Source: a virus
Lineage: Duplodnaviria > Heunggongvirae > Uroviricota > Caudoviricetes
IMG/VR virus record: IMGVR_UViG_2874933748_000005
Length of the DNA stretch: 48,295 bases
Direction: 5' to 3' (one strand)
Shown here: in pieces, positions 27,634 to 30,600 of the stretch
Numbering within the stretch: position 1 is the first letter of the stretch
Layout of the letters: each line of letters opens with the position of its first letter
Program-made: the position numbers

Positions 27634-30600
27634 TCATCCTCTCCGGATAAGGCACGGGCGTAATCTGCCAGTGTTTTCTTGTTGGTTGCTGCACCATCCT
27701 CTTCCTGCAGGCTCGCCAGCAGTGCACTGAGATCCAGCTGCCAGCGGGAAATACTGATGCGCAGCGCCGCCAGCGCATAAACGAAGCAGTCGAGCGCCTC
27801 ATTGCGTCGCTTTTTGCTGTCCCACAGTATTTTTTTCCTGCCATCCACCCATTTTTCGACCTGCTCTTCAGCAGTCAGCTGCTGCGCTTCGGTCAGATCA
27901 AAAATATCCGGGTTATTCGGGAAGTGAACGGCACCGGGAAGCGGTTCATCCCCTTCCGGCGTCAGTGTGAAGCGGTTATAAATCTGCTCTTTCGCGGTAT
28001 CCGTACCGATTTCGGTAAGGTAAACCCCGTTTTTGTTTCGCTTACGAGGCATGCTGGCCACCGGCTTACCGTAGACGGATGCCCCTTTAATGGGGATCAC
28101 CCGGAACAGCCCATGCTTTTTCGAGCGTTCATACACAATGGTCGGGTCAATCCCGCCAATATCCCAGCAGATACGGGATATCGACATTTCTGCACCATTC
28201 CGGCGGGTATAGGTTTTATTGATGGCCTCATCCACACGCAGCAGCGTCTGTTCATCGTCGTGGCGGCCCATAATAATCTGCCGATCAATCAGCCAGCTTT
28301 CCTCACCCGGCCCCCATCCCCATACGCGCATTTCGTAGCGATCCCGCTGGGAGTCGATACCGGCGGTCAGGTAAGCCACACGGTCAGGAACGGGCGCTGA
28401 ATAATGCTCTTTCCGCTCTGCCATCACTTCAGCATCCGGACGTTCGCCAATTTTCGCCTCCCACGTCTCACCGAGCGTGGTGTTTACGAAGGTTTTACGT
28501 TTTCCCGTATCCCCTTTCGTTTTCATCCAGTCTTTGACAATCTGCACCCAGGTGGTGAACGGGCTGTACGCTGTCCAGATGTGAAAGGTCACACTGTCAG
28601 GTGGCTCAATCTCTTCACCGGATGACGAAAACCAGAGAATGCCATCACGGGTCCAGATCCCGGTCTTTTCGCAGATATAACGGGCATCAGTAAAGTCCAG
28701 CTCCTGCTGGCGGATGACGCAGGCATTATGCTCGCAGAGATAAAACACGCTGGAGGGGTCATCCGGCGTCCATTTGAGGCCAAACGGCGTCTCTTTGTCG
28801 CCAAATTTAAGATACTGCTCCTCCCCGCAGTGCGGGCAGGCAACATGAAAACGCATAAAATGCGGGGATTCACTGGCTGCACGCTCAATCTGGCAGGTGC
28901 CTCTCACTTTGGGCGTGGAGCCACGGATGGACTTTGGCCAGACCGAGCCTTCAATACGTTTGTCGCCAAGGAACGTCGGAGAGCCTTCCTGTTCAATATC
29001 CTCATCAAAGGCAGCAAGTTCATCATAACCCGCCACATCCACCGACTTTTCACGGTAGTTTTTTGCCGCTTTACCGCCCAGGCACCAGAAGCCACGACCA
29101 TTGGAAAAACGCTTCATAGTGAGCGTGTTATCCCGGTGCTTTTTGCCATACCACGGAGCCAGCGCCAGCAGCGACGGAATATCGCGGATGGTCGGCTCAA
29201 CGTGGGTTTTCATAAAGTTCTCGGCATCACCATCCGTCGGCAACCAGATAAGTGTGTTGCGCTGCTTATGCTCTATAAAGTAGGCATAAACACCCAGCAG
29301 CATTTTGGAATAACCGACACGGGCAGACTTCACCACATTCACCTCACGGATGTAGTCGCTGCCCATCGCATTCATGATGGCCCGCTGAAAGGGCAGTGTT
29401 TCCCAGCGCCCTTCCTGGTATGCGGATTCTTTCGGGAGATAGTAATTAGCATCCGCCCATTCAACGGCGGTCTGTGGCTCCGGCCTGAACAGTGAGCGAA
29501 GCCCGGCGCGGACAAAATGCCGCAGCCTGTTAACCTGACTGTTCGATATATTCACTCAGCAACCCCGGTATCAGTTCATCCAGCGCGGCTGCTTTGTTCA
29601 TGGCTTTGATGATATCCCGTTTCAGGAAATCAACATGTCGGTTTTCCAGTTCCGGAAAACGCCGCTGCACCGACAGGGGGATCCCGTCGAGAATACTGGC
29701 AATTTCACCTGCGATCCGCGACAGCACGAAAGTACAGAATGCGGTTTCCACCACTTCAGCGGAGTCTCTGGCATTTTTCAGCTCCTGTGCGTCGGCCTGC
29801 GCACGCGTAAGTCGATGGCGTTCGTACTCAATAGTCCCTGGCTGGAGATCTGTCTCGCTGGCCTGCCGCAGTTCTTCAACTTCCCGGCGCAGCTTTTCGT
29901 TCTCAATTTCAGCATCCCTTTCGGCATACCATCTTATAACGGCGGCAGAGTCATAAAGCACCTCATTACCCTTGCCACCGCCTCGCAGAACGGGCATTCC
30001 CTGTTCCTGCCAGTTCTGAATGGTACGGATACTCGCACCGAAAATGTCAGCCAGCTGCTTTTTGTTGACTTCCATTGTTCATTCCACGGACAAAAACAGA
30101 GAAAGGAAACGACAGAGGCCAAAAAGCCCGTTTTCAGCACCTGTCGTTTCCTTTCTTTTCAGGGGGTGTTTTAAATAAAAACATTAGGTTACGGCGAAGA
30201 AGAACGGAAACGCCTTAAACCGGAAAATTGTCATAAATAGCGAAAACCCGCGCGCCTTCCGCCCCGTAACCTGTCGGATCGCCGGAAAGGACCCGCAAAA
30301 TGATAATAATTATCATCTACATGTCACAACGTGCATCTACGCCATCAAACCACGTCAAATAATCAATTATGACGCAGGTATCGTATTAATTGATCTGCAT
30401 CAACTTAACGTAAAAACAACTTCAGACAATACAAATCAGCGACACTGAATACAGGGCAACCTCATGTCAACGAAGAACAGAACCCGCAGAACAACAACCC
30501 GCAACATCCGCTTTCCTAACCAAATGATTGAACAAATTAACATCGCTCTTGTTCAAAAAGGGTCCGGGAATTTCTCAGCCTGGGTCATTGAAGCCTGCCG

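Follow-up and report, generated by a model that had tools for sequence, protein, structure and literature searches.

A variant cohesive end, probably functional, at the lambda-type cos site of an IS-disrupted prophage

The window, by which we mean the whole 48,295-nt stretch analysed here (IMG/VR virus record IMGVR_UViG_2874933748_000005, Caudoviricetes), carries a lambda-type packaging site followed by the genes for terminase, head and tail, all of them on the minus strand. The terminase small subunit Nu1 (29530..30075) has 181 amino acids and is 98.3% identical to lambda Nu1, with three substitutions, and the large subunit with the cosN endonuclease, gpA (27630..29555), has 641 amino acids and is 99.4% identical to its lambda counterpart, with four substitutions, none of them specific to the variant cosN allele described below. 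Both subunits thus have the lambda length, as had been said in an earlier account made from the sequence only (the sequence-only reading). Gene W (27427-27633), gene B (25829-27430) and the rest of the morphogenesis module from W through J (11263..27633) are full length and collinear with lambda, and the 19 genes from Nu1 to J, none of which is truncated, show 94-100% amino acid identity to lambda except J with 82%. At the nucleotide level lambda 13-18002 aligns to window positions 12264-30252 at 96.9% without rearrangement, and on the other side of the cohesive end lambda 48141-48502 aligns to 30265-30626 at 95.0%, in agreement with the close lambda likeness of the flanks that the sequence-only reading had described.

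The packaging site itself keeps the lambda architecture. The cosQ core GGGTCCT (30288..30294, minus strand) is the same as in lambda, lying at -30 to -24 and at the lambda distance; these are the positions that we take to be cosQ in lambda. A wider cosQ block, GGGTCCTTTCCGG, is retained by almost all carriers of the variant allele. On the other side of cosN, the cosB segment (30100..30215, minus strand) contains the three sites R3, R2 and R1. R3 (30200-30215), whose extent was taken from PMC9026076 and corresponds to lambda bp 50-65, is identical to lambda, in register and equally far from cosN. R2 (30141-30156) and R1 (30100-30115), which were located as a shared 16-mer, form the 16-bp inverted pair AGAAAGGAAACGACAG / CTGTCGTTTCCTTTCT and are likewise identical to lambda. 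Differences are found in the intervals: the R3-R2 interval, which holds the IHF site I1, shows five substitutions, and the R2-R1 interval a 1-bp deletion, which phage Perceval (Nu1 start at bp 190) appears to have too. No ORF of at least 40 amino acids and no Rfam family overlaps the cosN site.

The element that contains this module lies at argW, with a tRNA-Arg(CCT) gene at 2575-2649 followed by an integrase gene at 2775-3968. The integrase gene, placed behind an IS1, is the neighbour of argW at the tail-fibre end, and past this IS1 (~5.4-6.1 kb) come the tail fibre genes, the tail and head genes, cos and an IS3-family element (31345-32613, minus strand) placed between cos and the lysis genes. 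Past the IS3-family element are the lysis genes, a porin gene, a putative Q, rusA and a ybcN-like gene, the Q assignment being based on position and on similarity to the APEC E14033 locus, without a family match. The far end consists of an IS21-family element (41172-43139, plus strand) at the truncated nin end, with istA split into ORFs of 207 and 185 amino acids, then an IS1, a CscB-like permease gene and another IS1. The three IS1 copies are located at 5445-6142 (minus), ~43100-43724 (plus) and 47324-48020 (minus). The first two copies are inverted with respect to each other and enclose all of the late region (tail fibre to nin genes), the order of which is inverted relative to the argW-adjacent integrase; this suggests that an IS1-mediated inversion or deletion removed the early region. 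An Rfam match to IS009 (RF02111, 218 bits) is present at 6987-7185 (minus strand), within the tail fibre assembly gene region.

Neither cI, O, P and N nor other immunity, replication or recombination genes were found in the element, which has no early region and no int/xis in the normal order that characterises an intact inducible lambdoid prophage. No complete E. coli genome among those searched shows the same arrangement, and none covers even 50% of the right-hand 18 kb of the window, which is an IS mosaic. What makes the element defective is that IS elements have inserted into it and that its early region has been lost; the packaging site and all 19 of the head and tail genes are intact. 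The sequence-only reading was right in calling the element defective, and its alternative of a defect that extends to the packaging site is not supported.

The cohesive-end sequence occupies 30253..30264 on the minus strand, where it reads GGGCGGAAGGCG (the plus strand being CGCCTTCCGCCC), and is compared with GGGCGGCGACCT, bases 1-12 of lambda J02459; the alignment check with J02459 confirmed that the lambda cohesive end had been given correctly in the sequence-only reading. The two 12-mers do differ as had been noted there, at positions 7, 8, 9, 10 and 12, which makes five of 12 and not the six originally counted, the C at position 11 being common to both. The left half (positions 1-6, GGGCGG) is the same as in lambda, and the right half (7-12) is AAGGCG in the variant versus CGACCT in lambda. 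The G+C content of the overhang is 10/12 in both alleles. GGGCGGAAGGCG occurs once in the window, with 0 copies expected from 100 shuffles, and a search for the canonical cosN elsewhere in the window returned only three matches at two mismatches, against about four expected by chance.

In the 16-bp core ACG|GGGCGG......|CG (30251..30266, minus strand), which comprises the cohesive end and the CG pairs flanking the predicted nicks, both of these pairs are kept. We counted five rotationally symmetric pairs in the lambda core, in agreement with the '10 of 16 bp' given in PMC9026076, and four in the variant. The pairs closest to the nicks (-2/14, -1/13 and 2/11) are retained; the change at position 10 breaks the 3/10 pair and the change at position 12 adjoins a nick. 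Regarding membership of the lambda-type cos family, the conserved left half and a 5'-CG-3' at each nick are present and the canonical right half CGACCT is absent. According to PMC4669245 this right half is free of selection and differs between accepted members of the lambda-like phages, and so it does not define the family.

Compared base by base with lambda, the ends of which were joined for the purpose, positions -200 to +133 show 16 mismatches in the 321 nt outside cosN (5%). On this background the binomial chance of five changes among the six bases at 7-12 is about 2e-6 per 6-nt window and about 6e-4 over all such windows in the stretch compared, and the cluster of changes in cosN is therefore not the outcome of random drift or decay. 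A second replaced patch lies upstream of cosQ at 30335-30340 (lambda -76 to -71), where CTCCAC has become GTAGAT with four of six bases changed; short multi-base replacements are consequently not peculiar to cosN. We also considered AAGGCG as an inverted CGACCT and dropped the idea, the reverse complement AGGTCG matching at four of six positions, which is suggestive at best. An inspection by eye of restriction-site differences between the variant and canonical alleles gave nothing informative.

The allele recurs widely. Among 5,426 complete E. coli genomes, 155 contain the variant 12-mer together with the cosB-side flank at 100% identity; the places number 166, of which 150 are chromosomal and 16 on plasmids. 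This count was obtained with a 38-mer query that canonical sites cannot seed, and a 60-mer query, which takes in canonical sites because the left flank plus GGGCGG forms a 30-nt exact word, returned 5,526 lambda-type cos places in E. coli; comparing the two counts, the variant makes up roughly 3% of the E. coli lambda-type cos sites. It is also present in 23 PLSDB plasmids (phage-plasmids, most of them of ~46 kb) from E. coli, Shigella sonnei, E. albertii and E. fergusonii, in 51 IMG/VR stretches and, among the GTDB species representatives, in one, Escherichia sp. E1V33. Such recurrence at 100% identity in complete genomes, plasmids and IMG/VR stretches from independent projects refutes the idea that the 12-mer in the window is an artefact of sequencing or assembly.

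The backgrounds on which the variant is found are diverse. At least 25 different 40-nt upstream haplotypes carry it among the loci collected, and three types of small subunit lie beside it: lambda Nu1, a type starting 'MNKKNMAKSC...' and a phage 21-like type. In four IMG/VR stretches (L135, L139, L166 and L173) the variant lies upstream of a small subunit that is not of the lambda type (MKLHLMNKKNMAKSCRVSATAF...), and cosB differs as well; at a further locus (L160) it is followed by an inserted segment and then by a phage 21-like terS. Carriers are integrated at ybhC (att-lambda) in APEC E14033, at potC in ETEC H10407 and at argW in the window, with unrelated early regions. Two of these carriers are damaged, the capsid gene being split in APEC E14033 and interrupted by an IS66 insertion in H10407. 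In the APEC E14033 prophage, whose cosN is the variant one (L129, positions 26158-38459; NZ_CP126948.1), it is an ~11-kb island that splits the major capsid gene E, with genes for its own integrase, an Icd-like protein, a primase and an SSB, and also for a head decoration protein and a further major capsid protein. The island resembles a satellite that encodes a capsid and has inserted into the capsid gene of its potential helper.

Among phage records, exact GGGCGGAAGGCG is found in PhiR46_1 (host field ECOR13) and YDC107_1 (genus Ravinvirus), both linear plasmid-prophages in which the variant adjoins the diverged upstream flank GGCAGGCTACG. PhiR46_1 is N15-like, with telL/telR, ParAB and lambda-type head and tail genes; the deposited genome is complete and has a propagation host listed. 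From the GenBank title, the host field and the description of the PhiR panel we infer that it is an infectious phage; the PhiR phages reportedly originate from Brenes & Laub 2025. The nearest phage relatives of the window's own cos region, namely PhiR63_1, 2H10, Turner, Perceval and lambda, all have the canonical allele. Natural variation of cosN has reportedly been surveyed by Vahanian et al. 2017 (Virology 509:140). Full-text literature searches for the 12-mer on either strand returned nothing but papers on plants and on Streptomyces, unrelated to cos.

GGGCGGAAGGCG is the commonest non-canonical allele that we have seen, the other ones in IMG/VR being singletons or triplets: GGGCGGTGACCT, GGGCGGAGACCT, GGGCGGCGACCC and GGGCGACGACCT were each found once, and GGGCGGCAGACT three times in IMG/VR and twice in Kosakonia. 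Intermediates at two to four steps between CGACCT and AAGGCG were not seen among the alleles collected. The single GGGCGACGACCT contig (IMGVR_UViG_2778261513_000005) has G6A in the normally conserved left half and, judged by the published genetics, would be more likely than GGGCGGAAGGCG to represent an impaired site. In addition, lambda cos with identical or nearly identical lambda flanks was present in four non-enteric GTDB assemblies, those of Raphidiopsis brookii D9, an Aeromicrobium sp., Archangium violaceum and Alicyclobacillus fastidiosus (a 39.8-kb 'plasmid'), most likely as contaminating lambda control or vector DNA.

The terminases that accompany the two alleles were compared in two sets, one for Nu1 of 181 residues (41 variant and 70 canonical carriers) and one for gpA of 641 residues (29 variant, 34 canonical). 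No residue of Nu1 or gpA separates variant from canonical carriers in these sets, and four different Nu1 sequences and two different gpA sequences are each shared by the two alleles. It thus seems that one and the same enzyme acts on either site. A full-length Nu1 is present in 41 of 41 variant carriers that could be read, versus 70 of 81 canonical ones.

These observations can be set against the published genetics of cosN, which is functionally asymmetric, mutations at bp 7-12 having minimal effect (Feiss et al. 2015, PMC4669245). In that work the symmetric changes in the left half had severe effects: C11G was without phenotype and its left-half counterpart G2C lowered the yield ~10-fold, an asymmetry that was ascribed to the anchoring of TerL at the nearby cosB; cosQ and the CG pairs beside the nicks were described as conserved, and the lambda and N15 terminases showed no cosN specificity, cutting either allele equally well (PMC4669245). 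The changes in the window are limited to the half that is known to tolerate mutation, and for this reason the allele is most likely functional. We thus regard GGGCGGAAGGCG, on the basis of sequence comparison, as a functional natural allele of the lambda-type cosN, with a probability of about 0.85. The allele is uncommon and yet widespread, and there is nothing extraordinary about finding it here.

The sequence-only reading had put forward two explanations, a variant cohesive end used by a lambda-type terminase or a decayed cosN, the latter to be given up if the same 12-mer occurred in functional phages. The former has gained support from the recurrence of the allele on many independent backgrounds, with intact terminase genes and changes in the tolerant half only. 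Decay, which would mean that bottom-strand nicking was destroyed and that the 12-mer persists as a relic in defective prophages, is highly improbable. It would suit an element with three IS1 copies, an IS3 and an IS21 and with neither immunity nor replication region, as well as the two other carriers with a disrupted capsid gene. Moreover, no physical determination of virion ends with the variant overhang was found; none of the phage records and contigs searched ends at the variant cosN, and no phage record starts with the 12-mer. However, the changes are confined to the six tolerant bases, all constrained bases being kept, the 19 adjoining structural genes show no decay, and Nu1 is intact in every readable carrier. 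A dead site would hardly explain the presence of the allele on so many haplotypes, with three small-subunit types, at several integration sites and on phage-plasmids of four species, nor in a phage whose record comprises the complete genome and names a propagation host. The 12-mer does recur in phage records, and decay is excluded on the terms given above if PhiR46_1 is infectious.

It could also be argued that the site is functional and that its sequence is adaptive, constituting a second discrete cohesive-end type of the Escherichia lambda-like phages that is selected through its annealing incompatibility with genomes or satellites having canonical ends. With five mismatches the two kinds of end would fail to anneal, which would keep the variant genomes apart from the products of mixed-cos packaging. 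The allele is indeed discrete, lacking intermediates and differing at five of the six free positions; it is the commonest non-canonical one, is spread across TerS and replicon types and keeps the G+C content of the overhang, and a 2-base mismatch between ends already reduces the yield ~4-fold (PMC4669245). Nevertheless, both ends of a genome are normally produced from copies of one cos, leaving no obvious fitness effect of the identity of the allele, and a frequency of ~3% with no co-variation of the terminase agrees with the neutral spread of an allele by recombination, the region being highly mosaic, as the second replaced patch at -76 to -71 illustrates. We therefore consider such selection unlikely.

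For the preferred reading, that of a functional natural allele, we propose by analogy with lambda that Nu1 would bind the unchanged R3, R2 and R1 of cosB and thereby position gpA on cosN. The endonuclease would nick the top strand after ACG, just before GGGCGG, and the bottom strand at the junction of position 12 with the conserved CG (13-14), leading to 12-nt 5' overhangs with GGGCGGAAGGCG at the left end and CGCCTTCCGCCC at the right end, which would always be mutually complementary because both arise from one duplex site. The tolerance of the same terminase to changes at 7-12 may be explained if the nicking enzyme is placed by its anchorage at cosB rather than by reading of the bases. As a prophage remnant without early region, the element in the window would presumably use its cos only if late genes or a helper terminase were supplied.

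The finding leaves the current understanding unchanged and has some practical consequences. Annotation tools that look for GGGCGGCGACCT would miss, or call "decayed", ~3% of the E. coli lambda-type cos sites. Variant and canonical ends probably would not anneal with each other, which bears on mixed-cos packaging, on cosmid work and on predictions of helper/satellite compatibility. Furthermore, with its five changed bases the allele puts to a test, in nature, the published view that the bottom strand is nicked by position and not by sequence.

When compared with the known systems, the window shares with lambda the architecture, spacing and flanks of cos, with identical cosQ, cosN positions 1-6, CG pairs, R3, R2 and R1, and departs from it at cosN 7, 8, 9, 10 and 12, in having four rather than five symmetric pairs, in the 1-bp deletion between R2 and R1 and in the few substitutions of the I1 interval. 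Natural variation at 7-12 has been described in N15 and phiD326 at positions 9 and 12 and in Gifsy-1 at 8, 9 and 11 (PMC4669245). The N15/phiD326 cosN, GGGCGGCGTCCG, departs from lambda in the right half only, like the window allele, and has the same G12; N15, however, combines its two changes with a cosB of its own containing a single R site and a TerL ~65% identical to that of lambda, whereas the window combines five changes with lambda cosB and terminase. The alleles of Gifsy-1, of mEp213 and LLS (GGGCGGCGCGCT; PMC12315714) and GGGCGGCAGACT are also right-half variants that keep the left half and the flanking CG, but with two or three changes and diverged terminases and cosB, in contrast to the five changes in an otherwise lambda-identical module found here. 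Five simultaneous changes exceed any cosN allele reported as tested in the literature searched, and the window allele is the most divergent right-half example that we have seen, following the pattern of right-half tolerance described for lambda (PMC4669245).
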